Assembly (NCBI RefSeq): GCF_051251875.1
Contig: NZ_JBPOGL010000013.1
Coordinates: 14,683 to 78,682, forward strand
From: Polaribacter sp.
Lineage (GTDB): Bacteria > Bacteroidota > Bacteroidia > Flavobacteriales > Flavobacteriaceae
Length of the DNA stretch: 64,000 bases
Direction: 5' to 3'
Shown: in pieces, positions 23,151-56,245 of the stretch
Position numbering within the stretch: position 1 is the first letter of the stretch
Layout of the letters: each line of letters starts with the position of its first letter
Translations under genes and position numbers: made by a program
The notes under the pieces: model-generated
What the model was told of the DNA's origin: nothing
Databases searched by the model: none
What the model saw: the letters and a program-made list of their open reading frames with translations, nothing else

Positions 23151-23188
23151 CGATGTAATAATTTGTACATTTGTATAAAAATTAAAAC

Positions 23189-29864: not shown

Positions 29865-32800
29865 ATGACTTCTAAAGGTTTCTTAAATTTATTTAAAAAG
29901 AGTCTTGATCTTTTTCAGTCAAAACATGCTGTAATCGACAGATCGGGTTCATTAACCTACTTAGAGGTAGAAAATTTGTCAAACATAATTTGCCACAACC
30001 TATCAACAAATAAAAATACAGCAAATGGTACTATTGTTTTATTTCTGCCAAGGACTTCAGCTACTATCGTTTCAATACTTGGAATATGGAAGGCTGACTG
30101 TATTTACTTACCGATTGATCCAACTTTTCCGCAAGAAAGAATAAATTACATCATTCAAGATTCAAAAGCATCAGCTATCATCTCAACACCTGAATTTTCT
30201 GAAAAACTAGAACATTTAGCTATCGATATACTTCATTTTGATGACCTTGTCGAGGAAAGAAATCAAAACATTTCACCTTTATTTCAAGAGGAGAAGAGTG
30301 CCTATAAAATATACACTTCAGGATCTACTGGGCTACCAAAAGGAGTAAATATTAGTCATGCTTCTTTTTCTAATCTTCTGCAGGCCATGCAAGAGATTCT
30401 AGATCTTCAGGAATCAGATCAATTTTATGCCCTAACCACAATCTCCTTTGATATTTCTCTACTTGAATTGTTTCTACCTCTTACTTTAGGTGCTACCGTA
30501 GTAATAGCGGGGAATTTATCTAGAGATAATCCTCAAATGATGATTGAGGATCTACATACGTTTAATATATCGGCAATGCAGGCGACACCTGCACAATGGC
30601 AACTATTATTGGATGTAGGTTGGTCTGGAAACTCTAAATTGAAAGCAATATCCGGAGGGGAAAACCTTACTACTAAACTTGCTAATAGGCTCTTTACTAA
30701 AGTAGGGAAACTATGGAATATGTATGGCCCAACAGAAACAACAATCTGGTCCACTTATTACATCGTTGATGATGCAATACTTGATTCTAAAAACTCTAAA
30801 CGCTCAATTCCTATTGGATATCCAATACGCAAAACCTCTTTGTATGTTTTGGACGATGCGGGGAATAACGTAAGTGCGGATCAACTAGGAGAGTTATTTA
30901 TTGGTGGAGATGGTGTTGCTATTGGTTACATAAATGATCTTGAGAAAACCGCAGAGAGATTTGTAACAATTACAAGAAGTGGAACAGAACAACGCGTATA
31001 TAAAACAGGTGATATTGTAAAAATACTGCCCAATGGTGCCCTTGAGTTCATTCAACGAAATGACCTTCAGGTTAAGTTAAACGGTCACCGTATTGAATTA
31101 AAAGAAATAGAATCAGTAATTCGATCCTCTAACATCGTTAAAGAGGTTGTTGTTAAACCCATCACACCTTTGGAAGAAACGACCTATTTAACCGCTTTCT
31201 ATACAATTAATCAAGAATCAAAGAGTGCAAAAACACTGGGTATTAATCAGATTCGATCACTGTATGACAATATATACTCCTATAATAAGGCTGATGAACC
31301 AGTTATAGGATGGATCAACAGCTATACAAATCAACCATTTACTGCTGAAGAAATGGAGTCGTTCTACCAAAACACATATCATCGAGTTTCCAATTATATT
31401 AGCGGCGACATTCTTGAAATTGGTTTTGGTGAAGGTCATCTTATGAAAAAAATGATTCCATCATGTAATAATTATACAGGGATTGAGCTTTCTAAAAATA
31501 CATCTGAACATATAAACAAAAACCTTTTTAAGAATTATAAAAACAAAGTGCAATTACTATATGGTGAACCGGTAGAAGTTATTCAAAACCTGGATCAATT
31601 TGACTTTATCCTCATTAATTCAGTTGCTCAATACTTTCCTTCCATAAGCTACTTAAAGGAGTTATTGATTTCACTATGTAATAAAATTGGTGAGGGATTC
31701 ATATTCATTGGAGATGTTAGAAATCCGAGGCTTCAAAAATCATTTTACAGATCCCTTTTATCACAAAGAAATAACGGTACTTCTTCCAGTGATGATGAGG
31801 AAATAATTGAACAGATGTTTCAATCGGAAACCGAACTTTTTATTGACTATTTGGAATTCCAAAACCTATTGAACATAGAAAAGGTTGCAGACATTCGGTT
31901 CTTAACCAAGGATAGTCCATTTGATACTGAAATGGATCTCTTTAGGTATGATGTTTTGATCCATATCTCTTCCAATTCTAAAAAACCATCGCCAGAGCAT
32001 AGCATTGACTACATTGACAGTTATCCTGATCAATTAACTAATAAATTAAACGCTGGAAAACACTCAATTGTAAAGCTTTCAAATGTTCCCGATATTCGAT
32101 TGATCCCTTTTTCAGAAAAGCAACCAGGCTCTTCAATAATCACGTATGGAATTCCAAATTGGAAAGCTATCGCAGATCAATACAATTATAGGTTAGAAAT
32201 TCAGCCATCAAGTACTTCGAACAATAATCTTGACCTTTATTTTTATACACCCTGTATTGAGGCTATAAACCTACCAAGTTCTACTCCTCCGCGAGAGAAT
32301 TTTACCCCACAAACCGATTCGACTAAAAACATTAAGAATGCAGAGATTTTTGAAGAAATTCTTCGTGAAACTCTTCGAGAAAAATTACCTGCATATATGA
32401 TTCCAGAGCGGTATGTTATGTTAGATGAATTTCCTCTGACACACAACTGGAAGATTGATCGAGACCGTTTAACAGTTTCGGATAAAAAGGTAGAGCGTAA
32501 AAATGCTAGTGTAGCTCCAAAAAATGAACGCGAGAAGTTATTGGTCGAAATTTGGAAGGAGGTTCTGGGTATGGATGACCTTGGAATTACAGACAATTTC
32601 TTTTCACTTGGTGGAAGCAGTATTAAGGCATTACTAATCATTGCTAAGGTATATAAACAACATGGATTGACTTTACACGTTCAGGATTTCTTCCAATTCC
32701 CGATCATTGAAAAAATGGTGCAAGCACTTACTCAAGATGCAAAAGAAATTGTACTGGTTGATGAAAGCAGTTATTACCCTGTTTCACCAATGGAAGAGAG

Positions 32801-35800
32801 CATTTGGCTTCTATGCAATGACGCGGATGCAAGTCGCGCTTACAATATCGTTTATATATCCGATTTTTTATCGGAGCCTGACTTTCAATTGGTTGAAAAA
32901 ACGATTCTGTGTCTTATAAATAAACATGAATCTCTACGAACAGCTTATTCATTTTCGGATGAACTCAATGGTGTTCAACAGTATATTTCCCCCACAGACA
33001 ATACTCAATTCAGCCTAAATGTTGACGATAAGTTGCATTCCAATGCTAAGCTTACTCAATTCATCATTGATGAAAAAAACTACTTATTCGATTTAAGTAA
33101 TCCTTCACTTTTCAGGTGCTTCGTCAAAAAGAAGGAAAACGGAAAATGGGTGTTAATTTGGAATATTCATCACATAATTACTGATGGTTGGTCAATGAAT
33201 ATGCTTTTTGATGAGTTTGAAGAGATTTACAAACAGTTAGCTGAACTACGTTACATTCCTGATCATTCTAAAATTCAGAACAAAGACCATTCGATTTGGT
33301 ACAGGAAGCTGCAAGAGTCTGATTCTACAAAGAAGATGCTAAACTATTGGCGTGATCAACTAAGTGATTACGTTCCTTTTGAACTTACTTCTGATCGTCC
33401 ACGAGCAAAACTTAAGACCTATAATGGGGATCAACTTACTGTTCCTTTCACAGCTGATTTAGCCAAAATTCAGACTGATCTTGCCAGAAAAGAAAAAACG
33501 AGTGAATATACAATTGCGCTTTCTGCTTTTTTCATACTACTCAAACGATACACACAACAATCAGATTTACTGGTTGGGACACCAATAACAACGCGTACTC
33601 ATAGCCAATTGCAATCCATCGCAGGAATGCTGCTCAATACTGTGCCGATTCGTTCAAAGCTATCTGAAGAAAAAACATTCAATGAGGTACTACTCTCAAC
33701 TGAAAGGTCCGTTCAAAATGCTAGAGAAAATGGAGTTCTTGCCTTTAACAAAGTAGTTTCTGAGCTTGTAGATTCACCAGATTTAGCAAGAAATCCTTTG
33801 TTTGATATAATGTTCGTCTGGGAAGAATATTTTTCGGAGGAAAAAACCGAACGAAATGTAATTGCCAAACAGAAACTCACTACAAGTCATTCAAGTTTTG
33901 TGAAATTTGACCTTACGATTCTTATTCAAAAGGAAGAAGGTATTCCTAAGCTAACTCTTGAGTATAACACCGATTTGTTTGACAAATGGAGAATACAACA
34001 AATAGCCCAACACTTTTTCGCGATACTCCAAGCTTCAATTAAACAGGCTGATGCTCCGATTAAAAACATAAATGTACCTGTTCGACCATTACCTGTTCCC
34101 GCACAAGAAACACAACATCCATTGTCAACGTTGATGCATAGATTTGAACAACAAGTAGTTTCAAATCCAAATAATACGGCTGTAATTTTTTGTAACAACG
34201 CACTGACCTACGAAACACTTAATCGTAAAGCAAACCAACTAGCGAATCATTTAATTAGCTCATATCAAATTAAACCCGGAGATGTCATTGCTTGCTTTAT
34301 GGATCGCTCTGACAATTATATAGTAACTCTTTTAGGGATTCTTAAAACAGGAGCATGCTATATTCCATTAGCGTCTGATCTTCCAACAGAAAGAATTCAA
34401 CACATTCTTAACGAATCTGAGACTTCTGTTGTAATTACCTCTTCTGAAATGCACTTCCCTGTTTCAGACGTGGCTGTTCTTCTACTTGATGGTGAGTCTC
34501 TCAATTCGTCTGTTGAAAATCCTAAGATTCAACAAGTACCTGAGTCATTGGCTTATATAATTTATACTTCTGGTACAAGTGGGCAACCAAAGGGGGTTAT
34601 GATTTCTCATTCTGCCATTGTCAGCTATTGCAATCACCTTACTGAACAACATCCAATAAGTAAAAAAGACTGCATGGGAATGATCACCTCCCCTACTTTT
34701 GACTTATCTTACACAGCTCTTTGGCCTGCACTATTGACGGGTGCTTCAGTATGCGTTTTACCCGAAATTAAATCTCTAAACCATGAAGAGATTTCGAATT
34801 TCTTTAGGTCAATGCCCATCAATATTCTGAAATTAACACCAACGATTCTTCAATCTTTTCTGGACTTAAACATCGAGTTTCATCCAAATCTCCGTAGGTT
34901 GTTTGTTGGAGGTGAAGTTCTCCCCATGAGATTGGTTGAACAATTTCAAAAGAGATTTAATTCGGTTGAAATAGTCAATCATTACGGACCAACAGAAACG
35001 ACTGTTGGAGTTATCACTCATGCGTTAAAACCGGGTGAAATATGTCCGACTGCAACAGTACCTATAGGTAAACCTTTACCGGGTATCGAAGTCTTCGTCT
35101 TTGATGCTGAACTACATCATCGACCGATTGGATTTTCAGGTGAATTGTACATCGCTGGTCAACAACTTTCCAAGGGATATTTATGTCAGCCTGAAGTAAC
35201 AGCCAAAAGCTTTATTAAGCATCCAAAGAGTGGGGCGGTACTTTATAAAACGGGAGACATTGTACAACAAATGCCTGATGGAACGATTCTATATATAGGA
35301 AGAAAAGATCATCAGGTAAAGGTCAATGGAATTCGGGTTGAGATTGAGGAAATCATACATCAAATTGGTAGTATTTCAGAAATTAAAAATGTAGCGATTT
35401 CCTTTGTTGATAATTCAATCAATGCATATATAGTTACAACCAGGGACGTTGAATTATCTGAGCTAAGGAATCAACTTGCACTGAAGCTACCTGAATACAT
35501 GATTCCAACTCATTTTTATAGTGTAGATTCAATTCCTGTAACTCCAAATGGCAAAACAGATTTTGAAAAACTCAAAGAGAATCATAAACAAGCCGTAGAG
35601 TTTCAAAATATTGAGCGGGGTGCTTTACACGAGAAAATTTTACAATTATTCAAGGAAGTTCTGAACCGCGATGATATCCAATATTCAGATAGCTTTTTTA
35701 ATTCAGGAGGACACAGTTTAAAAGCCATGCAATTGTGCTTTCTCATTCAATCTGAGTGTAATTTATTCCTTGAACTCAATTCAATTTTCAGGTACCCAAC

Positions 35801-37190
35801 AGTTGACCAACTCACCGTATATCTAAACGAGAAAAAAACGCTGGGTGGCATACCAAAAATTAAGGACACAGAATTATATAAAACTTCTCCTCAACAACAG
35901 AGTATTTGGAGTTTATCTCAAACAACGGAGGGAAATCAAGCTTATAATGCGACTAAGGTGTATAAGCTAACAGGAGCTGTTGATGCTTTAAGTTTGGAGC
36001 AATGCTTTAAGCTTCTTCTGAAAAAGCATACATCTTTGCGTACTGCAATTATTGCAGAGCAGGGAGGGTTATTTCAGAGAATTCTTCCCGTTTCAACATC
36101 TGCATGGAAATACATTGACCAGCGATCTCAACCAGCAACGGACACTCAAATAAATTTCCTAATTCGAAAAACACTAAATTTCTCATTTAATCTTGAGGAA
36201 GGTTCTTTGTTTAAAGCCATTTTTGTGGAGTTTGATAAAGAAGTTTCATTTCTGCTTTTCTACATGCATCATATTTGTATTGATAAGTGGTCTTTCGACT
36301 TATTCTTTAACAATCTTCTTGAAGCCTATGTCACAGGAGGAGAAAAGCCATCTGAATCAGAACTTTCCTATGGAGATTATACTCATTGGTTAAGAACCGA
36401 AATTCATTCAGATGAGAATAGTTCCAAAAGTTACTGGAACCAACAATTATCCGGTTCATTGCCCTATTTGGAACTCCCTTTCTCAGGTAATCGTTCTGAC
36501 CACAAATCATTTCTGGGAAAAACGAGTGTTTTGATTTTACCTGATGTAGATTCTAAAAAGGTTCAACAACTTGCAGTTCAGCACCAGGTAAGTCCATTTT
36601 CAATTTACTATTCACTGACATGTCTATTGCTGTACACTGAAACAAGAGTAACAGACATTATTACTGGAACTCATTTTCTTGGGCGCTCCAGAAGTGACTT
36701 AGAGAAAATCGTTGGCATGTTTGTAAACACTCTACCAATTCGCGTTCAAATAAATAAAGAGCTGTCAATTGTGGAACTAGCAAAACAAGTGTACCATAAT
36801 ATCGTTTCGGGACAAATACATGAAACCTATCCATTTGCTCAGATTGTGAGCGATCTAGGGCTTAAACCTGAGATAAATAAAAACCCATTGTTTGGAATTA
36901 CGGTAGCTTACAATCAGATAACTGTTCCCCAAACGAGCGACTTGTTACCGTTTCAAATCGAACCTATTGAATCTGACACCTATGGTGGTTCAAGTAAATT
37001 CGATATATCCTTTACGTTTAATGAACATACGTTGAACAATGCTGTTCATTTTTCCATTGAATACAACGCATCACTTTATAATGATGAACAAATAGCCAAT
37101 CTTTCGAAATTGTTTTTACAGCTCCTCGATGAAGCAACTTTTTATCCTGACTTAAAAATTTCAACACTGAAATCGCCATCACAGGATTAA
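29865..37190 (+). CDS. NRPS, A(MT-interrupted)-T-C-A-T-C
   Basis: YTSGSTGLPKG/YGPTETT A cores; LEIGFGEG and INSVAQYFPS N-methyltransferase motifs; T GGSS and GGHS; C HHIITDG and terminal HHICIDK; no TE. Confidence 0.93.
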   Translation: MTSKGFLNLFKKSLDLFQSKHAVIDRSGSLTYLEVENLSNIICHNLSTNKNTANGTIVLFLPRTSATIVSILGIWKADCIYLPIDPTFPQERINYIIQDSKASAIISTPEFSEKLEHLAIDILHFDDLVEERNQNISPLFQEEKSAYKIYTSGSTGLPKGVNISHASFSNLLQAMQEILDLQESDQFYALTTISFDISLLELFLPLTLGATVVIAGNLSRDNPQMMIEDLHTFNISAMQATPAQWQLLLDVGWSGNSKLKAISGGENLTTKLANRLFTKVGKLWNMYGPTETTIWSTYYIVDDAILDSKNSKRSIPIGYPIRKTSLYVLDDAGNNVSADQLGELFIGGDGVAIGYINDLEKTAERFVTITRSGTEQRVYKTGDIVKILPNGALEFIQRNDLQVKLNGHRIELKEIESVIRSSNIVKEVVVKPITPLEETTYLTAFYTINQESKSAKTLGINQIRSLYDNIYSYNKADEPVIGWINSYTNQPFTAEEMESFYQNTYHRVSNYISGDILEIGFGEGHLMKKMIPSCNNYTGIELSKNTSEHINKNLFKNYKNKVQLLYGEPVEVIQNLDQFDFILINSVAQYFPSISYLKELLISLCNKIGEGFIFIGDVRNPRLQKSFYRSLLSQRNNGTSSSDDEEIIEQMFQSETELFIDYLEFQNLLNIEKVADIRFLTKDSPFDTEMDLFRYDVLIHISSNSKKPSPEHSIDYIDSYPDQLTNKLNAGKHSIVKLSNVPDIRLIPFSEKQPGSSIITYGIPNWKAIADQYNYRLEIQPSSTSNNNLDLYFYTPCIEAINLPSSTPPRENFTPQTDSTKNIKNAEIFEEILRETLREKLPAYMIPERYVMLDEFPLTHNWKIDRDRLTVSDKKVERKNASVAPKNEREKLLVEIWKEVLGMDDLGITDNFFSLGGSSIKALLIIAKVYKQHGLTLHVQDFFQFPIIEKMVQALTQDAKEIVLVDESSYYPVSPMEESIWLLCNDADASRAYNIVYISDFLSEPDFQLVEKTILCLINKHESLRTAYSFSDELNGVQQYISPTDNTQFSLNVDDKLHSNAKLTQFIIDEKNYLFDLSNPSLFRCFVKKKENGKWVLIWNIHHIITDGWSMNMLFDEFEEIYKQLAELRYIPDHSKIQNKDHSIWYRKLQESDSTKKMLNYWRDQLSDYVPFELTSDRPRAKLKTYNGDQLTVPFTADLAKIQTDLARKEKTSEYTIALSAFFILLKRYTQQSDLLVGTPITTRTHSQLQSIAGMLLNTVPIRSKLSEEKTFNEVLLSTERSVQNARENGVLAFNKVVSELVDSPDLARNPLFDIMFVWEEYFSEEKTERNVIAKQKLTTSHSSFVKFDLTILIQKEEGIPKLTLEYNTDLFDKWRIQQIAQHFFAILQASIKQADAPIKNINVPVRPLPVPAQETQHPLSTLMHRFEQQVVSNPNNTAVIFCNNALTYETLNRKANQLANHLISSYQIKPGDVIACFMDRSDNYIVTLLGILKTGACYIPLASDLPTERIQHILNESETSVVITSSEMHFPVSDVAVLLLDGESLNSSVENPKIQQVPESLAYIIYTSGTSGQPKGVMISHSAIVSYCNHLTEQHPISKKDCMGMITSPTFDLSYTALWPALLTGASVCVLPEIKSLNHEEISNFFRSMPINILKLTPTILQSFLDLNIEFHPNLRRLFVGGEVLPMRLVEQFQKRFNSVEIVNHYGPTETTVGVITHALKPGEICPTATVPIGKPLPGIEVFVFDAELHHRPIGFSGELYIAGQQLSKGYLCQPEVTAKSFIKHPKSGAVLYKTGDIVQQMPDGTILYIGRKDHQVKVNGIRVEIEEIIHQIGSISEIKNVAISFVDNSINAYIVTTRDVELSELRNQLALKLPEYMIPTHFYSVDSIPVTPNGKTDFEKLKENHKQAVEFQNIERGALHEKILQLFKEVLNRDDIQYSDSFFNSGGHSLKAMQLCFLIQSECNLFLELNSIFRYPTVDQLTVYLNEKKTLGGIPKIKDTELYKTSPQQQSIWSLSQTTEGNQAYNATKVYKLTGAVDALSLEQCFKLLLKKHTSLRTAIIAEQGGLFQRILPVSTSAWKYIDQRSQPATDTQINFLIRKTLNFSFNLEEGSLFKAIFVEFDKEVSFLLFYMHHICIDKWSFDLFFNNLLEAYVTGGEKPSESELSYGDYTHWLRTEIHSDENSSKSYWNQQLSGSLPYLELPFSGNRSDHKSFLGKTSVLILPDVDSKKVQQLAVQHQVSPFSIYYSLTCLLLYTETRVTDIITGTHFLGRSRSDLEKIVGMFVNTLPIRVQINKELSIVELAKQVYHNIVSGQIHETYPFAQIVSDLGLKPEINKNPLFGITVAYNQITVPQTSDLLPFQIEPIESDTYGGSSKFDISFTFNEHTLNNAVHFSIEYNASLYNDEQIANLSKLFLQLLDEATFYPDLKISTLKSPSQD

Positions 37191-41320: not shown

Positions 41321-41330
41321 ACCTAATTGT

Positions 41331-42074
41331 TTAAAGATTAATTACAAATATTTTGCATAAATAATTGATCTTGATTAATCTATTTTTTTTAAATTTTATA
41401 AAAAGCTGTTCGATACTATCTCGAAATTCTTTTTTATGAACTTGGATAAAATATGAATTAGATTCAAGCCTTCCTACAAATCCATCGATGTCTAATATCT
41501 GACTATTAGCTATTTCTTTATACTCCACTGATTTAGACATAAATTTCCTTTTTAGTATATCTGCATCATACAAAACTTCCTTATTTATACTATATAAAGG
41601 AAAAAGTCGTAAAAGTATTTCTTCAAATTCCTGATTAAATGCATCCTCAGTTTTCTCTCTGTCATTCCAACAAATAAGAATTTTCCCACTGGGTTTAAGT
41701 ATTCTTTTTGCTTCAATAATAGATTTTGGATTATCACACCAATGAAAAGATTGCCCAAATGAAACCATATCCATTGAATCATTTGGTAGTCCTGTTGATT
41801 CCGAATTACTATTTATAGCATGAAAAGTATTGAATTTTTCATATTTATGAATCATCAATTTAACCATTTTTTCATTGGGTTCAATGGCGAATACGATGAA
41901 TCCCTGATCTAAAAATCGTTCCGATAAACGTCCTGTTCCTGCTCCTATATCAGCTATTTTTTTTACTGTAGAATCTCTTTCATTATTTATTAAAGAAACA
42001 ATTCCTGTGGGATATTCTGGTCTGAATTTATCGTACAGAATTTCCTTTTTATCATATAATTTTGTTGTATCCAT
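41331..42074 (-). CDS. Class I SAM-dependent methyltransferase
   Basis: YDKFRPEYP, ADIGAGTG, AIEPN, QSFHW motifs. Confidence 0.9.
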   Translation of the reverse strand: MDTTKLYDKKEILYDKFRPEYPTGIVSLINNERDSTVKKIADIGAGTGRLSERFLDQGFIVFAIEPNEKMVKLMIHKYEKFNTFHAINSNSESTGLPNDSMDMVSFGQSFHWCDNPKSIIEAKRILKPSGKILICWNDREKTEDAFNQEFEEILLRLFPLYSINKEVLYDADILKRKFMSKSVEYKEIANSQILDIDGFVGRLESNSYFIQVHKKEFRDSIEQLFIKFKKNRLIKINYLCKIFVINL

Positions 42075-42077
42075 TTT

Positions 42078-42872
42078 CTAACCTTTAATGCGAATTCTTC
42101 TCGTTGTTTTGGGGTATTGGGAATCTAGATCGAGAGCTTTATGCATTAGTGAATAATTATCCCATATAAGTAAGTCATTCTTTTCCCACTTGTGATAATA
42201 CAAATACTTTTTTTCTGTTGCGAAGTCATACAAATACTTGAGTAATTCGTCACTCTCCTCTTTAGGAATACCATCAAGCCCCTTTAGCCAATTTTCATTT
42301 AAGTACAAGGCTTTAATTCCAGATATTGGATGAATTTTAACTAATGGATGTTTTAAGTTATGTAAGCTATTGACGATTTCCGTTTCTGGCTCAAGTCCCA
42401 TTTCTATTAAGTCATCTACATAAATTTGCCTACATGGATAATTCCCTTCCAAATGTTCAATTCTTAATTTCATATCTTCAGGGATGTCGGAATAGGCTTG
42501 AGATAGATTACAAAATACGGTTTCTCCTCCCACCAATGGTGCTTCCTCACAAGACAATAAGGTAATTCTTGAAGGCTCTTTTGTTTGAGGTCCATCAGAA
42601 TGCCAGTACATGCCTCCTCCATTCATTCCTTTCCCCTCTACATTTGATTGCAACCTGATTGTCTCAAAGCCCAGAGCTTGATATTTGTAAGGATAAGCAA
42701 CTTCTGGTACTCCAAAATAATTAGAAAACGAATCGAAACCTGCAAAATCCAAGTTGGCATTTCTTAAAACCAAAAGTTTGTTCTTAAGTAGTAATTTCCT
42801 AAGTTTATCTTTCGTGTATTTATGAAATTCTAATATTTCAAGCACAAAATCATCTGAATTATTTATAATCAT
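42078..42872 (-). CDS. TauD/TfdA-family Fe(II)/2OG dioxygenase
   Basis: WHSDG (HxD), GGETVF, HPLVKIHP.SG.KALY, WDN..LMH, RRI. Confidence 0.92.
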   Translation of the reverse strand: MIINNSDDFVLEILEFHKYTKDKLRKLLLKNKLLVLRNANLDFAGFDSFSNYFGVPEVAYPYKYQALGFETIRLQSNVEGKGMNGGGMYWHSDGPQTKEPSRITLLSCEEAPLVGGETVFCNLSQAYSDIPEDMKLRIEHLEGNYPCRQIYVDDLIEMGLEPETEIVNSLHNLKHPLVKIHPISGIKALYLNENWLKGLDGIPKEESDELLKYLYDFATEKKYLYYHKWEKNDLLIWDNYSLMHKALDLDSQYPKTTRRIRIKG

Positions 42873-42874
42873 AT

Positions 42875-45800
42875 TTAAATATTTATTTCTTCTAAAATTG
42901 AATGGTACAATTTCTTAATATATTCAACTTTAAAACGTTTTTCGTGATACCAAAAATTAAATGATAAACCTCCTTCAAGTTCATTAACCACGAGGTGTAT
43001 CCCTGGAATTCGTTTTATAGATGAAGGAGGACATTCAACAAATTCTTCTTCTAGAGTAGGGCCTAAAATCTCAATTATTTTGACATTTTTAGATTTTTTC
43101 TCCTTTTTATAATTCGTAAAATTGATACCTATATCCGTAAAATATGTATCCATCGGAAACCCAGAAAAAAGACCTACGTGTTTAGTCATATCAGATACAG
43201 GATAGTGTGACCTCATATTATATTGGATGACTAAATGATTTAGACGTAAAGCAGTATTTAAAATGGGTTCATCCCTCAAATCAATTTTCAAAGGGAAAGG
43301 TGCCGTAAATGGACCTATGGTATTGGCATATTTTTCTTCAGCTCTTCCACTTGAGATTACCGCAATTAAAACTTCTCTAAGCGATTTTATTTTGCCTATG
43401 GCTCGTGCATATGCTGAAAAGATAATTGAAAAAAGGGAGACTCCCTCTTTTATAGAAACTAGGCTTAATTGATTATATTTTTCTATCGATAAACTTTGGC
43501 TCCAACGAACTGATTTTTGTGGTTGAGTTATTTTTAACGAATGCTTTTCAGAAAGCAATGTTGATTCAGTAGTTGTACTAAAAACACCTTGAAAAAAGGA
43601 ACGGTCATTTTTTATATCATTCTGACAATATTTTTGCTGCCAGTCTATATAATCTTCATATTGTTTGTAATTAGGTAATATGTGTTTTCCAATACCTAGT
43701 TCATTTTCATAGGTCTTTTTTAACTCTTCTGAAAAAGTTGTCAGAGAGACTCCGTCAAAATCAATATGTTGTAGACACAGAAAAAGAACGAACCTATTTT
43801 CTTTCAGTTTAAAAATTTTTATTTCCCAAGGAATGCTGATTTTTCCAGAACGTGTTACTTTATACCTCTCTTCACAAAATCTTTTAAGTACTATTTGTTT
43901 TTCTTCTAGATTCAACTTGCTAATATTTGTAAAAAGTGCATTATCATCAAAAATAGGCATCTCATTTACATTCAATATCTTAACACAATCTTCACCGTAA
44001 TAATACCTTAGGGAATTATGACGACTTATAATTTTTCTTAAAGCTATTCGTAATTTATTTTCATCAAGTTTATAATTAAATATAATTGGAACTACTCGAT
44101 ATCCATATCCTTTTTGAATAAGCTGAACCCATCTTTCTTGTTGGAAAGAAAGTTTCTCTAGTTGACCGTTTATGACTTTTTCATTTTTGTTTTCTTTTTC
44201 TATTTCCTGACTCGTTTGAAGTTTTTCAGTTAACAAGTTAGTAATGCCTTTAATTGTTGGATTATCAAAAATAAATGTAACACTTATCTCTACTTCAAAA
44301 ATACGTTTTAATTTATTTCGAACTTGAATGCTCGTAAGCGAATCTACACCATATTCAAAAACACTTTTATTTTCATCAAGTTCAAAAGATTCGTTATGCA
44401 AATATCCAATAACAGAATTAAAAACTTCTTTCACTTTTAAAATTACAAACTGATTTTGTTCATTTATTGATAAATCGACAAATTGTTGCTTTATTGATTT
44501 TTTCTTTTCATTTTCCGTAACTATTTTCGGAATAAATGTTTCATATCGATTCTTCTGTCGGTTAGGAATAGTTTCTAAATAATTGGACCAATTCATAGGA
44601 ATTACAATTAATTGATTCCAATCCATATTTATCACATTTCCAATAACTCTTTTACCTTCATTGTTTCCAATTAAATTAAATCCTAATGATTTTAGATGTT
44701 GTTGAATTTCTAATTTCCCTTTCAATTCACCAGCTTCAGACCAAGCCCCCCAGTTTATATTATGAGAAGGTAGATGCTGGCTTTTTCTATAACTGCTAAG
44801 TGCATCCATAAATGCATTCGCGCCCCCATGATTACTTTGCCCATGATTACCAATAATTGAAACGATTGACGAAAAAGTTACAAAGTATTTTAATTCCTTA
44901 AAGTATTTAATCGAATTATTATGCAAAACTATCGTTCCAAGAACCTTAGGAATAAAACAAGTTTCTATTGTCTTAATACTCTGGTTTAGAATTGTTGCAT
45001 CTTCTATTGCTCCTGCTGTTTGAAATATCCCTAAAACTGGTAATTCTTTGTTGGATATACTTTCGAAAAAACTAGATACTTCCTCTTCTTTAGAACAATC
45101 TATTTTATAATAGTTAATTTCTGTATTAGGATATTGATGTTTAAAGTTTTTCAAGTAAGTATTTCTATCTTGATTCAATGAACTTCTACCAAATAATATA
45201 ATTTGCTGAACACCATGTTCTCCTAAAAATTCAGCAGTAATTTTCCCTAGTCCACCAAAGCCTCCTGAAATTATATATACCCCATTTTCATCCAATTTAC
45301 TTTGTTTGCTTTTTGGGATTTTATTTTTTGACTTAAGATATGGTAAATAAACCCTATTTTCCCTGATAGCAATTTCTTGCCTATTTAACAATATGGCAAA
45401 TACCTTTTCAAAAGTATCTTTATTAATGGTTTCCCCTTTACTAAAATCTAAAAAACCAAAATTAATTTCAGTAATCTCCAAACTCAAGGAACGCAATACC
45501 CCCTGAATACATCTTCCAATAAAATTACAGACAATATCATCATCCATTACTTTTTGTGCAGATGCTGTTATTTGGTAAAAATTAATATTATCGTATTTAA
45601 TCTGAATGAGTTTTTGGAAAAAAGTAATGATTTGATGAATTTGATGTTTTAGTTTTTCATAAAAAGAAGAATTAAAGGACAAATCAGTTTCTAATTCAGA
45701 AACATATACAAACATCAAATTTTCTTTTCCTCCAATTATCTTATCTAAGAAAACAATTTCATTGTTGATATCAGAAATATTAAAACATGTATAATTTGCA

Positions 45801-48800
45801 AATGCATTTTCCAAAAATTGTCGAGAATGATTTGTTAGTGGTTTATCAATTAAGACTATAACCTGATATGACAAAGAATCAATTCCATGGAATTCAGTTA
45901 TATTACTATCATTTCGTTCCCAAATTATTTGACAATATGCATCTTTCATATTATCAGATTCCGTTGAATTAACTAAAACGAAATTTCCCTTTTCTGGAGG
46001 AGCAATCCAATATTTCTGTTTAGCAAATTTGTATGGAATAGGGGATTTTTTCTTTTCATCAAAAGAATTAGAATTCATTGATTTCCAATTTATGTTTACA
46101 CCACTCTCATATAAAGCTGAAATACTATTATAAAATTCCTTTTCTTGAAGTAATATATTACGTTTTGATGAACGAGAAAATGTAGGGATTAGTTTAAGTC
46201 CTGAATCGGGAAAACTCGCTTCAATTAACCCAAGTAGTACAGGACTAGGACCTATCTCCAAAAATGTCGTAACCCCCTTATTTAAAAGATGTTCGATTCC
46301 ATTATAAAACAATACAGTTTCACGAGTATGCCTACTCCAATATTCAGGTCTTATAAAATCTTCTTTCTGTCCTGATACACCTGAAAGATTAGATACAATT
46401 GGGATTTTTGGAATATTATAATCAATCTGTCTCAGAACTTCCATAAAGGGTATCTTCATAGCATCCATTAATGGGGAATGTCCTGCTCTATCAATAATTA
46501 ACTCTTTCCATTTTATTCCTTCTTCGCTACACTTTTTTGATAATTCTTCAATCCCTACCTTATCTCCTGATGCAACAGTACTCACAATACCATTTATCGC
46601 AGCAATGGAAATAGATATTTCATATTGTTCTATCCATTTTTCAACTTTATCTGTTCCTGTAAGGATGGATATCATTCTTCCTTCTTCCGAAACAAATTCA
46701 TCCATAAGTTTTCCTCGTTCCAAACTTAGCCATAGACCTTCTTCAAGCGAAAAAACTTCGGCAACACAAGCTGCTACATACTCTCCTGTACTATGGCCGA
46801 TTAATACGTCTGGAATGATACCCAATGATAAGTAACATTGTGTTAATGCATATTCAAAAGAAAACACAGCAACCTGAGTGTATTTAATTTGGTGCATCAA
46901 GCTTTTGTCTTTTTCAGAAAAAAGCAAATCAAGTAATGATACTTTATCGATTTTTTGTAAATATTGATCACATTTTATGATTACCTCTCGAAACACTTCA
47001 TTTGATTCAAAAAGATATTTCCCCATAGAAGAATATTGAACTCCTTGTCCTGTATAAACAAATGCTAATTTTCTTTTCTGAACAGGAGTTGTATTTATAA
47101 AATCATTTTCTTCTATGATTTTTTGTTCCAATAATATTTGCGTTTTGGAAGTCAATTCCTCTAATGATTTGGCAGAAATAAGTGTCCGGTTAGAATACAA
47201 TGGTTTTAGCATAATCTGACTAAACGCCAAATCACTAATAGATTTACAATTCCCTTTTTGCAAATAGTCCATTAATCCTCTTAATTGATTTTCAAGCCCT
47301 TCAACACTTGGGGCACTTATAGGAATGCATTCTACTTTCTGATTTAAATTAATAGTTCGTTCCTTTGGATGATCATGTTCTTCCAAAATAGCATGAGCAT
47401 TTGTACCACCTATTCCAAAAGAACTAACTGCTGCTCTTCTTGAAGAGTTTGTTTCCCATATTTTAGATGTACCATTATTAATATAAAAAGGGGAATCTGA
47501 AAGATTCATTCTTTCATTCGCTTGTTCGAAATTAATTTGAGGAGGAATGGTTTCATAGTAAAGGCAAAGTGCTGTTTTAATAAACCCAACAACTCCAGAT
47601 GCCCAAGAAAGATGTCCAATATTTGCTTTTACGCTGCCTAAAGCACAAAACGAAAGTTGATCTGTATACTTCCTATATACTTTTGATAAAGAACGGATTT
47701 CAAGTGGGTCACCAAGAATTGTACCTGTACCATGTGCCTCAACATAACCAATTGTATCAGGGTTAATTTTAGCTGCTCGAATAGACTTGAGGATAACATC
47801 CTGTTGCCCAAAAGAACTTGGTGTAATGAATCCTGCTTTCTCACCTCCATCATTATTTATAGCAGAACCCAATAAAACAGAATAAATGCGGTCACCATCT
47901 TTGATTGCTTTATCATAATCTTTCAAAACAACCATTCCAATACCACTTCCAAAGACTGTTCCTGTGGCATTCTTATCAAATGGACGACACTGACCATTTT
48001 TTGAAAAAACCATATCTGGCTGGTATAGGTATCCACATTTTTGAGGAACAGTAATATTTACTCCACCTGCAATAGCTGCTTCACATTCCCCTTTCAAAAT
48101 ACTTTCTGCTGCCATATGGATTGCTACTAATGAAGTAGAGCAAGCAGTTTGTACTGTAACAGCTGGTCCTTTTAAATTTAATTTAAATGCTATTCTAGTT
48201 GCCAGATAGTCTTTATCATTAGCAACCATCAATTGCAGTTCGTTTGATGATTCCAGAAAAGTACGATTTTGATGCATTCCAGTTGCTGGATGAACATTAT
48301 TTAAAAGATAAGTACTGAAACCACAACCTGCAAAAACACCAACTCTGCTAATAGATTGCTTACCATAATATCCAGCATTTTCTAATGCTTGATAGGCACA
48401 TTGCAATGCTAGTCTATGTTGGGGATCCATTATTGAAGCTTCCCTAGCACTAAATCCAAAAAAATCCGCATCAAAATATTCAATATCGTCAAGGATTCCT
48501 GCATAATGCATATAGTCTTCGTCTTCTCTAAGTTGAATATTCCCTGACTCTATATCTCCCTTTGGAATTGACTGAACAGATAATTTTCCTCCCTTAATAT
48601 TTTTCCAAAAATTTTCTAAATCAGCTGCTCCAGGAAGATTACAAGCCATTCCTACAATGGCTATTCTCTTTATTTTTTCTTTATTTTCTAAAGGTGCATC
48701 TTTTTCTTCTTCATTATTTAACAAATCTCCTTGAAGTAAATTGGCAATCCCTCTTATAGTTGGATATTCAAATAATGAAATAATATCTAATGATTTTTCT

Positions 48801-50470
48801 AAATCTAATGTTTGGTTAATTTGTTCTATTACAGTAACTGCTAAAATAGAATTCCCTCCCAAATCGAAAAAAGGATCATTCACACCTATGTCTTCTATTA
48901 CTAAGCATCTCTCCCATATTTCCTTCACCTGATTTTCCAAACTATTATTTGGAGATTTATATTGACTCATCAATGGTGGCCTAACCCTGTCTAATTTCAG
49001 TTTAGAACGATCAATTTTACCAGACACTGTCTTCGGTATCTCATCGAGTTTTGTTAATTTTGAAGGCAACATGTATTCAGGAAGTTGCTCTCTCAAATAT
49101 TGTTTTATTGAACTGAAACAATCAACTTGATTTTTTTCTTTTAGAATATAAAAAGCACAAACCAATGGTATTAAACCATCTTTATATATCTGAACTACAG
49201 CCTGTGAAACTTGAGGGTGTCCAGCAATAACTACTTCAATTTCTGCAGGCTCGACTCGATACCCACTAATTTTGACCTGATAGTCAGACCGTCCACAAAA
49301 AAGGATATTACCATCTTCTTGAACTTTTACTAAATCCCCTGTTTTGTAACTTTTTATTGATGTATCAGTTGGTAGAGGAATAAATAACTCATTTGTTAAT
49401 TCATCATTATTTATATACCCTTGAGCAAGGCAAACCCCGCTAATAAATAATTCCCCAATTTCTCCTTTAGCAGTCTCTTTACCATCTGAAATTATATGTA
49501 AGCCAACGTTATCAATTGCAATGCCTATAGGTGCAATTTCAGCCCAGTCATCTACATTAGGGGGAAGTGCATAAGCACTTACAACATGTGCTTCTGTCGG
49601 TCCATATTGATTAATTAATCTACAATCAGATTCTTCTTTGAAGAACGTTTTAATAGGTTTAGTAAGTAGTAATTGTTCTCCAGCAGAAATCACTTCTTTC
49701 AGAAAGATAGGGATAGGTTCTTTTTCATAAGCTACTGTAAGTTCTTGTATCATAACATAAGGCAAAAAAATTCTACCAATATTATTTTCATTCAAGAATT
49801 GAAGTAAGCTCTTTGGAACCCTACGTATCTGTTCACTAATCAAAACTAAAGTTTTCCCAAAACAAAGGGTTGATAAAATTTCCTGTAATGAAACATCAAA
49901 CCCCAAAGGTGCAAATTGTGCTACTCTTTCAATTTCAGGATCTAAGTGTAAAAGCTGCCATTCTATCAAATTTTCAAAAGAGACCGTTCGGAATAAAACC
50001 CCTTTAGGCAAACCTGTAGAACCAGAGGTGTAAAGAATATATAAGAATTCTCCTTCCTCTGATTTCACTTCAACATCTTGATTTCTATCTATATCTATAT
50101 TTTTAAAATTCAGCCAATTAACTTGGTCAATCTCTATTACAGGTTCTTTATCCGTTAAAATAAACTTCACCCCAGAATTAGCTATTATATACTCTATTCT
50201 TTTGGTAGGTAATTTATTGTCTAATGGTAAATAAATAGCCCCTTTCTTAATTATGGCAATAAGGCTTGCTATCTGCATAAATGATTTATCTGACTTCAAA
50301 CCAACAATATCTCCTGGCTCTATCCCTGAATCATCAAGTATTTTAAACAAACAATTGACCATCCTTCCTAAATCCTTATAAGTATATTCAGAATTACTAC
50401 TAAGAATAGCTTTCTTTAATGGTATTTCTTTGACATTCCTTTCAATGTATTTTAATAATATATTCCTCAT
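42875..50470 (-). CDS. Hybrid NRPS-PKS, A-T-KS-AT-KR-ACP-C
   Basis: A cores; T GGNS; KS VQTACSTS/EAHGTGT/NIGH; AT GHSTG and RAGH; KR GGFGGLG/GQSNH; ACP GVDSL; terminal QHIDFDG; no TE. Confidence 0.93.
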   Translation of the reverse strand: MRNILLKYIERNVKEIPLKKAILSSNSEYTYKDLGRMVNCLFKILDDSGIEPGDIVGLKSDKSFMQIASLIAIIKKGAIYLPLDNKLPTKRIEYIIANSGVKFILTDKEPVIEIDQVNWLNFKNIDIDRNQDVEVKSEEGEFLYILYTSGSTGLPKGVLFRTVSFENLIEWQLLHLDPEIERVAQFAPLGFDVSLQEILSTLCFGKTLVLISEQIRRVPKSLLQFLNENNIGRIFLPYVMIQELTVAYEKEPIPIFLKEVISAGEQLLLTKPIKTFFKEESDCRLINQYGPTEAHVVSAYALPPNVDDWAEIAPIGIAIDNVGLHIISDGKETAKGEIGELFISGVCLAQGYINNDELTNELFIPLPTDTSIKSYKTGDLVKVQEDGNILFCGRSDYQVKISGYRVEPAEIEVVIAGHPQVSQAVVQIYKDGLIPLVCAFYILKEKNQVDCFSSIKQYLREQLPEYMLPSKLTKLDEIPKTVSGKIDRSKLKLDRVRPPLMSQYKSPNNSLENQVKEIWERCLVIEDIGVNDPFFDLGGNSILAVTVIEQINQTLDLEKSLDIISLFEYPTIRGIANLLQGDLLNNEEEKDAPLENKEKIKRIAIVGMACNLPGAADLENFWKNIKGGKLSVQSIPKGDIESGNIQLREDEDYMHYAGILDDIEYFDADFFGFSAREASIMDPQHRLALQCAYQALENAGYYGKQSISRVGVFAGCGFSTYLLNNVHPATGMHQNRTFLESSNELQLMVANDKDYLATRIAFKLNLKGPAVTVQTACSTSLVAIHMAAESILKGECEAAIAGGVNITVPQKCGYLYQPDMVFSKNGQCRPFDKNATGTVFGSGIGMVVLKDYDKAIKDGDRIYSVLLGSAINNDGGEKAGFITPSSFGQQDVILKSIRAAKINPDTIGYVEAHGTGTILGDPLEIRSLSKVYRKYTDQLSFCALGSVKANIGHLSWASGVVGFIKTALCLYYETIPPQINFEQANERMNLSDSPFYINNGTSKIWETNSSRRAAVSSFGIGGTNAHAILEEHDHPKERTINLNQKVECIPISAPSVEGLENQLRGLMDYLQKGNCKSISDLAFSQIMLKPLYSNRTLISAKSLEELTSKTQILLEQKIIEENDFINTTPVQKRKLAFVYTGQGVQYSSMGKYLFESNEVFREVIIKCDQYLQKIDKVSLLDLLFSEKDKSLMHQIKYTQVAVFSFEYALTQCYLSLGIIPDVLIGHSTGEYVAACVAEVFSLEEGLWLSLERGKLMDEFVSEEGRMISILTGTDKVEKWIEQYEISISIAAINGIVSTVASGDKVGIEELSKKCSEEGIKWKELIIDRAGHSPLMDAMKIPFMEVLRQIDYNIPKIPIVSNLSGVSGQKEDFIRPEYWSRHTRETVLFYNGIEHLLNKGVTTFLEIGPSPVLLGLIEASFPDSGLKLIPTFSRSSKRNILLQEKEFYNSISALYESGVNINWKSMNSNSFDEKKKSPIPYKFAKQKYWIAPPEKGNFVLVNSTESDNMKDAYCQIIWERNDSNITEFHGIDSLSYQVIVLIDKPLTNHSRQFLENAFANYTCFNISDINNEIVFLDKIIGGKENLMFVYVSELETDLSFNSSFYEKLKHQIHQIITFFQKLIQIKYDNINFYQITASAQKVMDDDIVCNFIGRCIQGVLRSLSLEITEINFGFLDFSKGETINKDTFEKVFAILLNRQEIAIRENRVYLPYLKSKNKIPKSKQSKLDENGVYIISGGFGGLGKITAEFLGEHGVQQIILFGRSSLNQDRNTYLKNFKHQYPNTEINYYKIDCSKEEEVSSFFESISNKELPVLGIFQTAGAIEDATILNQSIKTIETCFIPKVLGTIVLHNNSIKYFKELKYFVTFSSIVSIIGNHGQSNHGGANAFMDALSSYRKSQHLPSHNINWGAWSEAGELKGKLEIQQHLKSLGFNLIGNNEGKRVIGNVINMDWNQLIVIPMNWSNYLETIPNRQKNRYETFIPKIVTENEKKKSIKQQFVDLSINEQNQFVILKVKEVFNSVIGYLHNESFELDENKSVFEYGVDSLTSIQVRNKLKRIFEVEISVTFIFDNPTIKGITNLLTEKLQTSQEIEKENKNEKVINGQLEKLSFQQERWVQLIQKGYGYRVVPIIFNYKLDENKLRIALRKIISRHNSLRYYYGEDCVKILNVNEMPIFDDNALFTNISKLNLEEKQIVLKRFCEERYKVTRSGKISIPWEIKIFKLKENRFVLFLCLQHIDFDGVSLTTFSEELKKTYENELGIGKHILPNYKQYEDYIDWQQKYCQNDIKNDRSFFQGVFSTTTESTLLSEKHSLKITQPQKSVRWSQSLSIEKYNQLSLVSIKEGVSLFSIIFSAYARAIGKIKSLREVLIAVISSGRAEEKYANTIGPFTAPFPLKIDLRDEPILNTALRLNHLVIQYNMRSHYPVSDMTKHVGLFSGFPMDTYFTDIGINFTNYKKEKKSKNVKIIEILGPTLEEEFVECPPSSIKRIPGIHLVVNELEGGLSFNFWYHEKRFKVEYIKKLYHSILEEINI

Positions 50471-51714: not shown

Positions 51715-52451
51715 TTCATATTTTTTTTGTAAGAATTAACAATAAATGAATCCCATTCAGGCTTTGGATTATCATAATGAACCATTAGATGTACTCTTCT
51801 TTCTTCAGAGATATTTATAACACTGTGTTCAATACTAATATCGAACTTAAAAGCTTTTCCTTCCTCAAAAGGGATTATACCTTTATCCTTAAGAAGGAAA
51901 TACGCTCCCTTTGGATTCGTTATCGCTATATTTACAGATTTAGGTAAGAAACTTTTCTGAGTATCTGTATGTGGAAGTATATAACCACCTGGTTCCAAAA
52001 CCATTAGTCTTATTCTATGGAAAAATTCAACTTTAAAGGAATTCTTAATTGCATTCGTTGTGATAGGACAGAGATCTGATAATTCAGTCCATTTATATGG
52101 AGTCTCAGAATCACTTTTATAACCATAATGCCTTGGAGATCTAGTTTTATTAGTTGAAAGACCATGTAAACATAAACTCCACCAACCATTATGCATTTCT
52201 TCTCCTCTATGGGTTGAACTGTTTTCATAAAAGTCAAGAACATTTAAGATCTCAGTTCTTATTTTATTTATTGGTAATCTTAAATCTATTTCTAAATAAG
52301 GTATTAAACTATTAGTACTTATCCAATCTCTGGTAATAATATTTTGTTTAGGGAATTTTTGTTTTTGGATACAAAGCGAATGTTTCTTCCAAAATTTTGT
52401 AATTTCATCTGGAAAGGGTAAGTTACTAATTATGGAATAAATATTTTCCAT
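51711..52451 (-). CDS. Aspartyl/asparaginyl beta-hydroxylase-family 2OG-Fe(II) oxygenase
   Basis: RIRLMVLEPGGYILPHTD, HSVIN, RVHLMVH. Confidence 0.85.
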   Translation of the reverse strand: MENIYSIISNLPFPDEITKFWKKHSLCIQKQKFPKQNIITRDWISTNSLIPYLEIDLRLPINKIRTEILNVLDFYENSSTHRGEEMHNGWWSLCLHGLSTNKTRSPRHYGYKSDSETPYKWTELSDLCPITTNAIKNSFKVEFFHRIRLMVLEPGGYILPHTDTQKSFLPKSVNIAITNPKGAYFLLKDKGIIPFEEGKAFKFDISIEHSVINISEERRVHLMVHYDNPKPEWDSFIVNSYKKNMK

Positions 52452-56244: not shown

Positions 56245-56245
56245 T

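Follow-up and report, generated by a model that had tools for sequence, protein, structure and literature searches.

Among described systems, the hybrid synthases of detoxin/rimosamide-like (DRL) clusters, such as PipC/PipE of pseudotetraivprolide, lack an acyltransferase (AT), draw on FabD in trans and end in a thioesterase (TE); they follow an upstream C-A-T, and ester formation falls to a second TE (PMC12828459). They have as hallmarks a proline-loading A-T ahead of KS-KR-ACP and a neighbouring TauD dioxygenase (PMC12828459). The window, by which we mean the whole stretch of 64,000 nucleotides of Polaribacter sp. DNA analysed here, carries a cluster that resembles them in placing proline and one ketide on a KR-bearing NRPS-PKS next to a conserved TauD dioxygenase gene. 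It differs in having a hybrid with a cis-AT that bears a RAGH motif, a His-type KR and a terminal C domain, in an A-T-X partner protein without DRL counterpart, and in the lack of a TE. The core of this cluster places it in a family of small proline-ketide assembly lines that spans phyla, had not been described before and in many cases encodes a prolyl-tRNA synthetase of its own.

Open reading frames, Pfam matches and motifs give the genes and domain orders that the earlier note had implied. NRPS1 (29865..37190, plus strand, 2441 aa) reads A1-T-C-A2-T-C, where A1 has a Gly code and is interrupted by an N-methyltransferase and A2 has an Asp code. The hybrid NRPS-PKS (42875..50470, minus strand, 2531 aa) reads A(Pro)-T-KS-AT-KR-ACP-C, and NRPS2 (37179-40163, minus strand) reads A-T-X. 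An Sfp-type phosphopantetheinyl transferase (52459..53190, minus strand; Pfam ACPS, NCBIfam HetI/AusB-like) is encoded alongside, and motif reading finds the active sites of the KS, T and ACP domains intact, with Cys/His/His present in the hybrid KS. Pfam detects no TE (PF00975) in any cluster protein, and the gene tables of the four-gene relatives likewise list none. The cluster has a G+C content of 32-38%, against 26-30% in its flanks, and is surrounded by integrases, a transposase, DUF3987 and RteC genes; it is carried on a mobile island, and the Polaribacter genome has no other NRPS locus. It is probable that an intact hybrid NRPS-PKS cluster was acquired horizontally by a Polaribacter-like marine flavobacterium, and that its core is common to Dactylosporangium and several metagenome contigs.

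To read the binding pockets, the four A domains were aligned to GrsA PheA by MAFFT and positions 235/236/239/278/299/301/322/330/331/517 were extracted. The GrsA PheA sequence used as reference reads DAWTIAAICK at these positions, so the reference numbering is right, and the FDxS, GGE and NxYGPTE motifs and the A10 Lys provide unambiguous anchors. The resulting codes are DILQIGMIWK and DLTKFGHVGK for A1 and A2 of NRPS1, DVQFIAQV(V)K for the hybrid and DPVQFGLVWK for NRPS2. They agree letter for letter with the codes that had been aligned manually in the earlier note, so that software alignment, which could have given other pocket residues, gave the same ones. A1 fits the Gly pattern D-I-L-Q-x-G-x-[IV]-W-K, A2 (34143..35555, plus strand) fits the Asp pattern DLTKxGH[VI]GK with His322, where Glu322 would point to Asn, and the hybrid domain fits DVQ[FYLH][IVA]A[HQ]VVK.

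We compared the codes with a published table of 508 codes (PMC12283262 Table S7). A1 matches Gly(5), (6), (7), (10) and (16) at 9/10 positions, and some of these entries come from N-Me-Gly modules. A2 matches DLTK[I/L/V]GHVGK at 9/10, with Phe at position 299; codes of this form are listed for β-OH-Asp 27 times, for Asp 7 times and for Asn once (PMC12283262), so the earlier assignment to Asp is upheld, while the β-hydroxy-Asp type of the code had been overlooked. The hybrid code is identical (10/10) to Pro(16), listed for leupyrrin LeuE and a Chitinophaga NRPS (PMC12283262), in agreement with the proline proposed before. Whole-domain comparison of the hybrid A domain with solved A domains places TycB1 (Pro) above Phe domains, but ClbH-like and LgrA chains score higher still, and this ranking was set aside as substrate evidence. 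A full-text literature search for the four codes returned no match, published codes being printed letter by letter in the supplement. As predictors, the codes point to Gly, Asp, Pro and a Gly-like residue as the likely substrates.

The insert in NRPS1 A1 (residues about 452-830; 31218..32354, plus strand) lies between A8 and A9, flanked by QRNDLQVKLNGHR and LPAYMIP. Among solved structures it has one significant relative, the N-methyltransferase that interrupts the A domain of TioS (A4-M4; 5wmm, E 5.7e-20), which is inserted at the same place and shares the motifs ILEIGxGxG, NSVxQYFP and GDVRN (ILEIGFGEG, INSVAQYFP and GDVRN in NRPS1); Pfam matches to Methyltransf_12/25/23/11 are all weak. Position, SAM motif and NSVxQYFP/GDVR motifs thus mark it as an A-embedded NRPS N-methyltransferase, which bears out the embedded N-methylation of Gly suggested by the earlier note. 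The sarcosine-forming Gly modules MscH, AjuL, Arg2 and CdeK have a Gly-type code as well (PMC12283262). Unlike interrupted-A modules of this kind, A1 belongs to a loading module: its protein has no C domain ahead of it, which leaves room for either one or two methyl groups. The active sites of the C domains are HHIITDGWS in C1 and HHICIDKWS in the terminal C2.

With respect to its second residue, NRPS1 resembles the β-OH-Asp modules of siderophores and lipopeptides in its code (9/10) and in having Fe(II)/2OG oxygenases encoded alongside. The studied cases use TauD/SyrP-type oxygenases, whereas the cluster-specific oxygenase of the window is AspH-type, a member of the Asp/Asn β-hydroxylase family (PF05118, Pfam E 1.2e-16; 51711..52451, minus strand). 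Like NRPS1, it is seen only in the window's cluster, and the gene tables of the relatives list no PF05118 gene. The TauD/TfdA-family Fe(II)/2OG dioxygenase (PF02668, E 4.5e-46; 42078..42872, minus strand) belongs instead to the conserved core: it lies directly downstream of the hybrid, is 36% identical to the TauD adjoining the Dactylosporangium A-T-X gene, is also adjacent in locus L094 and a JGI contig, and is kept in relatives without any Asp module. In syringomycin biosynthesis Asp is hydroxylated by the TauD-type SyrP and not by an AspH enzyme (Singh et al. 2008, in the summary given by PMC7100376), and by this precedent the TauD might serve Asp in the window's cluster. Going by co-occurrence, we would assign Asp to the AspH-type enzyme.

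The AT domain of the hybrid (46160..47062, minus strand; PF00698 Acyl_transf_1, E 5e-47, residues 1137-1437) contains GHSTGE. Malonyl and methylmalonyl ATs are expected to show HAFH or YASH, respectively, about 100 residues past GHSxG; the hybrid has neither and carries RAGHS in their place, while HAFH occurs in 21 of 31 AT domains from 25 aligned sequences. A functional type I PKS KR has a catalytic Lys-Ser-Tyr and an NADPH-binding GGxGxLG. The hybrid KR (44735..45283, minus strand) keeps the Lys, the Ser and the Rossmann/NADPH motif, but has His1881 (codon CAT at 44828-44830) where the catalytic Tyr is expected; this His aligns to the Tyr of the MlnE, PksJ and MAS KRs, a residue nearly invariant among 24 homologues. 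The terminal C domain (42893..44080, minus strand) has the active site QHIDFDGVS.

The A domain of NRPS2 (38664..40163, minus strand) has a genuine Pro at position 236, within an FDPH motif. The nearest codes in the published table are Gly/Ala codes at 7/10, tied with one Gln code at 7/10, and in a whole-domain BLAST against 58 A domains the best 27 all have Gly-type codes, to which the NRPS2 domain is just 31-35% identical. The earlier note was right to call this fourth code non-standard, and these comparisons favour the small residue that it suggested; what it could not see is the conservation of the code. It follows the pattern DP-x-Q-x-G-x-V-[WY]-K, found in 12 of the 15 readable codes of A-T-X proteins, whose consensus DPVQLGVVWK is a Gly code with the changes I236P and L239V. 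The code is therefore not a product of drift, as judged from these sequences, but marks a family of stand-alone A-T-X proteins of about 1000 residues. The two pocket changes could shift the specificity of the NRPS2 domain.

This family is defined by the X domain (37182..38390, minus strand), a C/E-superfamily domain of divergent sequence with the motifs NHFIIDGIS and SGRGEME...TVGWLAYHFP. Its score against Pfam Condensation (26.6 bits) is under the cut-off and its best solved relatives are epimerisation domains (E 1.9e-5), with a Ser in place of the first Glu of EGHGRE, which may argue against an active epimerase; its His and Asp are invariant across the family. It is probably a chain-releasing domain. 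Word-indexed searches, with the hybrid and with NRPS2 as queries, listed only partial matches of at most 39% identity and one full-length NRPS2 relative, P0196; the A-T-X family came to light solely when the X domain was searched for exhaustively. Among 185,579 species genomes, a pattern scan found no close relative of the hybrid; NRPS2 has no orthologue among 40 relatives, and the X domain has none among 400 Bacteroidota genomes.

In Dactylosporangium and in three metagenome contigs, the A-T-X genes adjoin homologues that match the hybrid from one end to the other; taken by locus, the match is end to end in L092, L094 and L095 and partial in L093. The window and these four loci all have both genes side by side and the conserved motifs; end-to-end alignment of the hybrid with a family homologue gives 29.5% identity over 2594 columns. 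The RAGHS AT motif and the C domain motif QH[IL][DE]FDG are present in 5/5 hybrids, and all four readable hybrid A domains have a Pro code (DVQFIAHVVK, DVQFVAHVVK or DVQFIAQVVK in the homologues). The KR Tyr is His in four of the five (window, L092, L094 and L095), while L093 has the normal Tyr. NRPS1 is found only in the window's cluster among the family loci compared, although the metagenome contigs are short and genes that appear absent may lie off-contig.

L092 and L094 encode no synthetases besides the hybrid and the A-T-X protein, so these two must work together. Since the C domain of the hybrid is paired with A-T-X in these relatives, NRPS1 is placed upstream of the hybrid, and comparison with these two fully read relatives favours the order NRPS1, hybrid, NRPS2. 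Codes and relatives together thus back the Gly/Asp/Pro/small-residue scaffold of the earlier note and the order in which it would be assembled.

Three further genes lie in the cluster. The first product is an MDR-superfamily oxidoreductase that is only distantly CCR-like (40160..41320, minus strand): it scores 52.6 bits against TIGR01751, for which the cut-off is 378.55, and so does not qualify as a crotonyl-CoA carboxylase/reductase. It has no solved relative at E 0.01, and its homologues (50-58% identity) adjoin PKS/FAS genes. None of the relatives has an orthologue, the MDR of L095 being 18% identical and L092, L093 and L094 having none. A free-standing class I SAM methyltransferase (Pfam; 41331..42074, minus strand) shares 29% identity along its entire length with the methyltransferase of the L093 cluster. 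The beta-lactamase-fold serine hydrolase (Pfam; 50509..51714, minus strand) has the esterases EstG (7uda) and EstU1 (4ivi) as its nearest solved relatives, and L093 and the JGI contig likewise encode members of its superfamily. A role as PBP-type (SurE-like) offloading cyclase, which would go with a terminal T-E module, appears less likely, as esterases are nearest and SurE is outside the best 60; the X domain at the end of NRPS2 resembles E domains but lacks the first Glu of EGHGRE.

We propose the following pathway, to which as a whole we assign a probability of about 0.6. NRPS1 would build N-methyl (or N,N-dimethyl) glycine by means of its embedded N-methyltransferase and join it to aspartate, which is probably β-hydroxylated by the AspH-type oxygenase. 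The hybrid would load proline and add one ketide unit through its RAGH AT and a KR that in most members has His for Tyr, and the terminal C domain of NRPS1 would most likely acylate the prolyl nitrogen on the hybrid. The QHIDFDG C domain of the hybrid would then hand the chain to a small Gly-like residue on the A-T-X protein, whose divergent C/E-type X domain with its invariant His and Asp most likely frees the product, and a TauD-type oxygenase would tailor the core. The predicted chain is Me(1-2)Gly-(β-OH)Asp-Pro-[CO or CHOH]-CH(R)-CO-(Gly-like residue).

The earlier note had proposed an α-alkyl, β-hydroxy ketide, similar to statine or dolaproine; in this reading the CCR-like MDR would make an alkylmalonyl extender and the KR would reduce the keto group. 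The KR does retain its NADPH motif, Lys and Ser, the His might serve as proton donor, and the L093 KR has a normal Tyr; the AT has a Gly at the site of the Phe of malonyl-specific ATs, a 58% identical MDR homologue adjoins a VAGH-type AT in Chitinophaga, and the free methyltransferase could O-methylate the product. However, the replacement of the catalytic Tyr in the window and three of its four homologues weakens the β-hydroxy group, and the α-alkyl group is weakened because RAGH is present in all five hybrids while no relative has an orthologue of the MDR or, in the four-gene relatives, any extender-unit pathway. A Chloroflexi MDR homologue lies beside a malonyl-type (HAFH) AT and DH-KR without ER, which suggests a trans-ER role and further loosens the link between MDR and alkylmalonyl. 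We consider this ketide unlikely. Statine- and dolaproine-type γ-amino-β-hydroxy acid modules also combine an amino acid with one KR-containing PKS module, but the hybrid has His for the KR Tyr and no C- or O-methyltransferase domain in its module, so with both details weakened the resemblance is loose at most. The codes of the earlier interpretation are confirmed and its scaffold and order are supported, whereas the details of its ketide are not. The opposite outcome, a non-reducing KR, would leave a β-ketoacyl amide that the X domain could release by a Dieckmann-type reaction as a 3-(peptidyl-prolyl)tetramic acid or related cyclised product, maybe O-methylated. A KR devoid of its catalytic Tyr, an X domain that keeps its His and Asp, and the absence of a TE here and in the four-gene relatives are consistent with this, as is the layout: tetramate assembly lines run from a PKS module through a C domain and a small amino acid to a non-TE terminal domain. 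Yet the NADPH site is intact across the family, which argues that the KR is in use, the beta-lactamase-fold hydrolase could instead hydrolyse the chain off, and we know of no Dieckmann cyclase in the C/E superfamily; a tetramate is doubtful.

Other alternatives concern how the proline is used. Pro could be a free starter, as the earlier note had allowed, with NRPS1 making a separate dipeptide or acting elsewhere, for instance on the completed core, which it would esterify or acylate. The A domain comes first in all hybrid homologues, NRPS1 forms its own transcription unit on the opposite strand, Dactylosporangium has no further NRPS within 10 kb, and Pro must be a free starter in the four-gene relatives. 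In the window, on the other hand, the last domain of NRPS1 is a C domain whose HHxxxD is intact, and the protein has no releasing domain; NRPS1 hence needs an acceptor. The prolyl nitrogen is the only free carrier-bound amine besides the NRPS1 starter, and the A-T-X residue is already paired with the conserved C domain of the hybrid; a free starter here is quite improbable. Least credible is that the cluster is a DRL member which makes a detoxinine-type unit from Pro and acetate by keto-reduction and TauD ring hydroxylation: the TauD neighbour is present, but the AT-less hybrid and the TEs are not, and we regard membership as highly improbable.

The family also suggests a target. The mupirocin and borrelidin clusters make aminoacyl-tRNA synthetase inhibitors and carry an extra synthetase copy. 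The same holds for the ascamycin (AcmD) and SB-203208 (SbzA) clusters (PMC12945691). Likewise, a full proline-tRNA ligase gene lies inside the cluster in three relatives, though not in the window's own, and a literature search found no precedent for an NRPS-PKS cluster linked to prolyl-tRNA synthetase (ProRS). It is conceivable, if on balance not expected, that the TauD-tailored core of Pro, ketide and small residue is a proline-mimicking ProRS inhibitor, and that in Polaribacter the MeGly-(β-OH)Asp cap added by NRPS1 to the prolyl nitrogen gives an inactive prodrug that is unmasked by peptidases of the target cell. An inhibitor of this kind would explain the extra ProRS in the three related clusters, and the Polaribacter product would then resemble other peptide-carried synthetase inhibitors. 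The recurrent ProRS link makes this a directly testable target hypothesis. Beyond routine code annotation, the odd fourth code has led to an uncharacterised assembly-line family across phyla, with three conserved and unexplained features: the RAGH AT, the His-for-Tyr KR and the stand-alone A-T-X protein, which has a pocket signature peculiar to it. In Dactylosporangium, whose genome also retains a housekeeping type II ProRS, the pathway takes a compact form of four genes, and expressing it should be straightforward.

The cluster region comprises nine genes. NRPS1 (29865-37190; A-T-C-A-T-C, with ~380 extra residues within its first A domain, A1) lies on the plus strand, and the other eight are closely packed on the minus strand: NRPS2 (37179-40163; A-T and a weak C-like domain), an MDR oxidoreductase (40160-41320, 386 aa), a methyltransferase (41331-42074), a TauD-family oxygenase (42078-42872), a hybrid synthase (42875-50470; A-T-KS-AT-KR-ACP-C), a beta-lactamase-fold hydrolase (50509-51714), an AspH-family oxygenase (51711-52451) and a PPTase (52459-53190). 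NRPS1 and NRPS2 are convergent, and their 3' ends overlap by 12 bases (37179-37190). The only condensation domains in the whole 3.9-Mb genome are those of this cluster. G+C content is 32-38% in the cluster versus 26-30% outside, and mobile-element genes lie on both flanks (25652-29306 and 54509-62908): an integrase, a Mutator transposase and a truncated BT4734-like N-domain ORF on one side, and DUF3987, RteC, a second integrase, a VapE-like gene and a Toprim/CHC2 primase on the other. An aldehyde dehydrogenase in the flank is 92-93% identical to Polaribacter and Formosa counterparts. The cluster is therefore the cargo of a mobile island in a marine flavobacterium. Just beyond the island (21453-24307), a Fic/DOC protein with DUF4172 and an AAA_14/DUF4143 ATPase sit beside an AraC-type regulator.

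MAFFT alignment to GrsA PheA reproduced exactly the four pocket codes of the earlier note: DILQIGMIWK (A1), DLTKFGHVGK (A2, the second A domain of NRPS1), DVQFIAQVVK (hybrid) and DPVQFGLVWK (NRPS2). The ten canonical positions of the reference read DAWTIAAICK, so the numbering is right. We scored the codes against 99 entries of a 508-code table from characterised assembly lines (supplement of PMC12283262). Among these, the hybrid code is a verbatim Pro entry (leupyrrin LeuE and the Chitinophaga eiseniae pentaciditin NRPS), and A1 matches five Gly codes at 9/10 positions, several of them from N-methyl-Gly modules. The A1 insert lies between A8 and A9; among solved structures it matches significantly only the N-methyltransferase that interrupts the A domain in TioS A4-M4 (5wmm, E 5.7e-20), with which it shares the motifs ILEIGxGxG, NSVxQYFP and GDVRN. 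A2 matches DLTKIGHVGK, DLTKLGHVGK and DLTKVGHVGK at 9/10, codes that in the tabulated entries combine to beta-hydroxy-Asp 27 times, Asp seven times and Asn once; the ending HIGK is that of the unmodified Asp of surfactin, lichenysin and bacitracin. The NRPS2 code has no near entry among the 99 compared: it scores 7/10 at best, with two Gly or Gly/Ala codes and with a Gln code that is mismatched at 239 and 331, which are the decisive positions. In a whole-domain BLAST against 58 A domains from its top database matches, 27 Gly-type domains rank first, at only 31-35% identity, above Thr, Asn and other domains of the same proteins. These comparisons support the proposed reading of N-methyl-Gly, Asp, Pro and a small residue as the predicted substrates.

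Judged by sequence, the fourth code is the signature of a family. One database match (P0196, 999 aa, code DPIQLGLVYK) aligns with NRPS2 end to end. An exhaustive HMMER search with the divergent C-terminal domain of NRPS2 alone, here called X, returned a distinct set of ~1000-residue A-T-X proteins with X at the C-terminus (E 1e-29 to 1e-12). Twelve of the 15 with a readable code fit D-P-[VLIT]-Q-[LFI]-G-[VLIA]-V-[WY]-K; their consensus, DPVQLGVVWK, differs from the Gly code DILQLGVVWK by I236P and L239V. In the X domains the His and Asp of an xHxxxD motif are invariant, and an SGRG...TVGWLAHHxP block is common to them. The top solved relatives of X are, weakly, epimerisation domains (E 1.9e-5), and EGHGRE has Ser in place of its first Glu.

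Of all the results, this family, with its recurring prolyl-tRNA synthetase (ProRS) gene, is the most useful. The Dactylosporangium sp. NPDC051485 cluster encodes a methyltransferase, TauD, A-T-X, a 473-aa aminoacyl-tRNA synthetase (aaRS) and a 2518-aa A-T-KS-AT-KR-ACP-C hybrid, which aligns with that of the window over its full length (29.5% identity, 1203 bits). Short metagenome contigs carry TauD, A-T-X, an aaRS and a 2502-aa hybrid (L094); a 2555-aa hybrid, a methyltransferase, two P450s, a beta-lactamase-fold protein, A-T-X and a 517-aa aaRS (L093, with no TauD in the examined part); and an MDR, a 2539-aa hybrid, A-T-X and a PPTase (L095). A JGI contig has TauD, A-T-X, PhyH and a beta-lactamase-fold protein. 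The hybrid homologues have the Pro codes DVQFIAHVVK, DVQFVAHVVK and DVQFIAQVVK. All three cluster aaRS genes (Dactylosporangium, L093 and L094) score as proline-tRNA ligase above the curated cut-off of 437 bits, at 497.6, 467.9 and 492.4. Three ProRS-like genes occur in the Dactylosporangium genome (C7:18938-19951 and C18:107397-109133): a type II housekeeping copy and two of type I, only one of the latter within the cluster. The window's genome has a single ProRS, whose match (C28:28481-29995) contains one in-frame TGA, perhaps from an overrun of the alignment, perhaps of another origin. Additional aaRS genes within clusters are known to serve either in resistance or in biosynthesis (PMC12945691); a limited literature search found no ProRS-linked cluster.

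The clusters of Dactylosporangium and L094 contain no synthetases other than the hybrid and A-T-X, so the hybrid's C domain, whose QH[IL][DE]FDG motif is conserved in 5/5 hybrids, would have to pass the chain on to the residue loaded by A-T-X, with X as the probable release domain. NRPS1 ends in a C domain with intact HHxxxD and lacks a releasing domain; taken with this pairing, it could act only upstream of the hybrid, on the prolyl nitrogen. Both features favour the proposed order N-methyl-Gly, Asp, Pro, ketide, small residue. The alternative that proline is a free starter suits the relatives. Among the clusters compared, some on short metagenome contigs, only that of the window has an AspH-type gene and NRPS1, and TauD is kept in relatives without an Asp module; co-occurrence thus links AspH to Asp and TauD to the core. 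In syringomycin, SyrP is active and AspH inactive (cited in PMC7100376), a precedent that argues against this assignment.

Among described systems, the detoxin/rimosamide-like family comes nearest, as it likewise has a Pro-loading hybrid with KR and a conserved TauD. Membership fails, however: hybrids of that family have no AT and carry a terminal TE (PMC12828459), whereas the window hybrid has a cis-AT and a terminal C domain. The beta-lactamase-fold protein was considered as SurE-like; its closest solved relatives are the esterases EstG and EstU1, not SurE.

Unlike the scaffold and its order, the ketide details of the earlier note are not supported. A beta-hydroxy group is doubtful, as the NADPH site of the KR is intact but its catalytic Tyr is missing. 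In its place is His1881 (codon CAT, 44828-44830), which aligns with the Tyr of the MlnE, PksJ and MAS KRs; this His is conserved, not accidental, occurring in four of the five hybrids, while Tyr is almost invariant in 24 other homologues. L093, with its two P450 genes (5576-8051), is the sole relative to keep the Tyr. An alpha-alkyl group is likewise unsupported: the RAGH motif is a family trait (RAGHS in 5/5 hybrids), the four-gene relatives encode no extender-unit pathway, and the L095 MDR is unrelated to that of the window. The window MDR has many homologues (50-58% identity) adjoining PKS/FAS genes, one next to a VAGH-type AT and another next to a malonyl-type AT that is accompanied by DH-KR but no ER; no solved relative of the protein was found. 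This large, well-conserved MDR family is present in Chitinophaga, myxobacteria and Chloroflexi (loci L005, L007, L009 and L010), repeatedly beside PKS or KASIII/ACP/SDR genes. The Chitinophaga sp. HK235 locus (L005) encodes a C-A-T-KS-AT-ACP-C-A-T hybrid (294-9923) whose AT has VAGHS, then the MDR homologue (10001-11161) and a type II thioesterase. In myxobacteria, the MDR is the first gene of a conserved operon, MDR-hexapeptide protein-KASIII-ACP-SDR-KASIII-acyl ligase.
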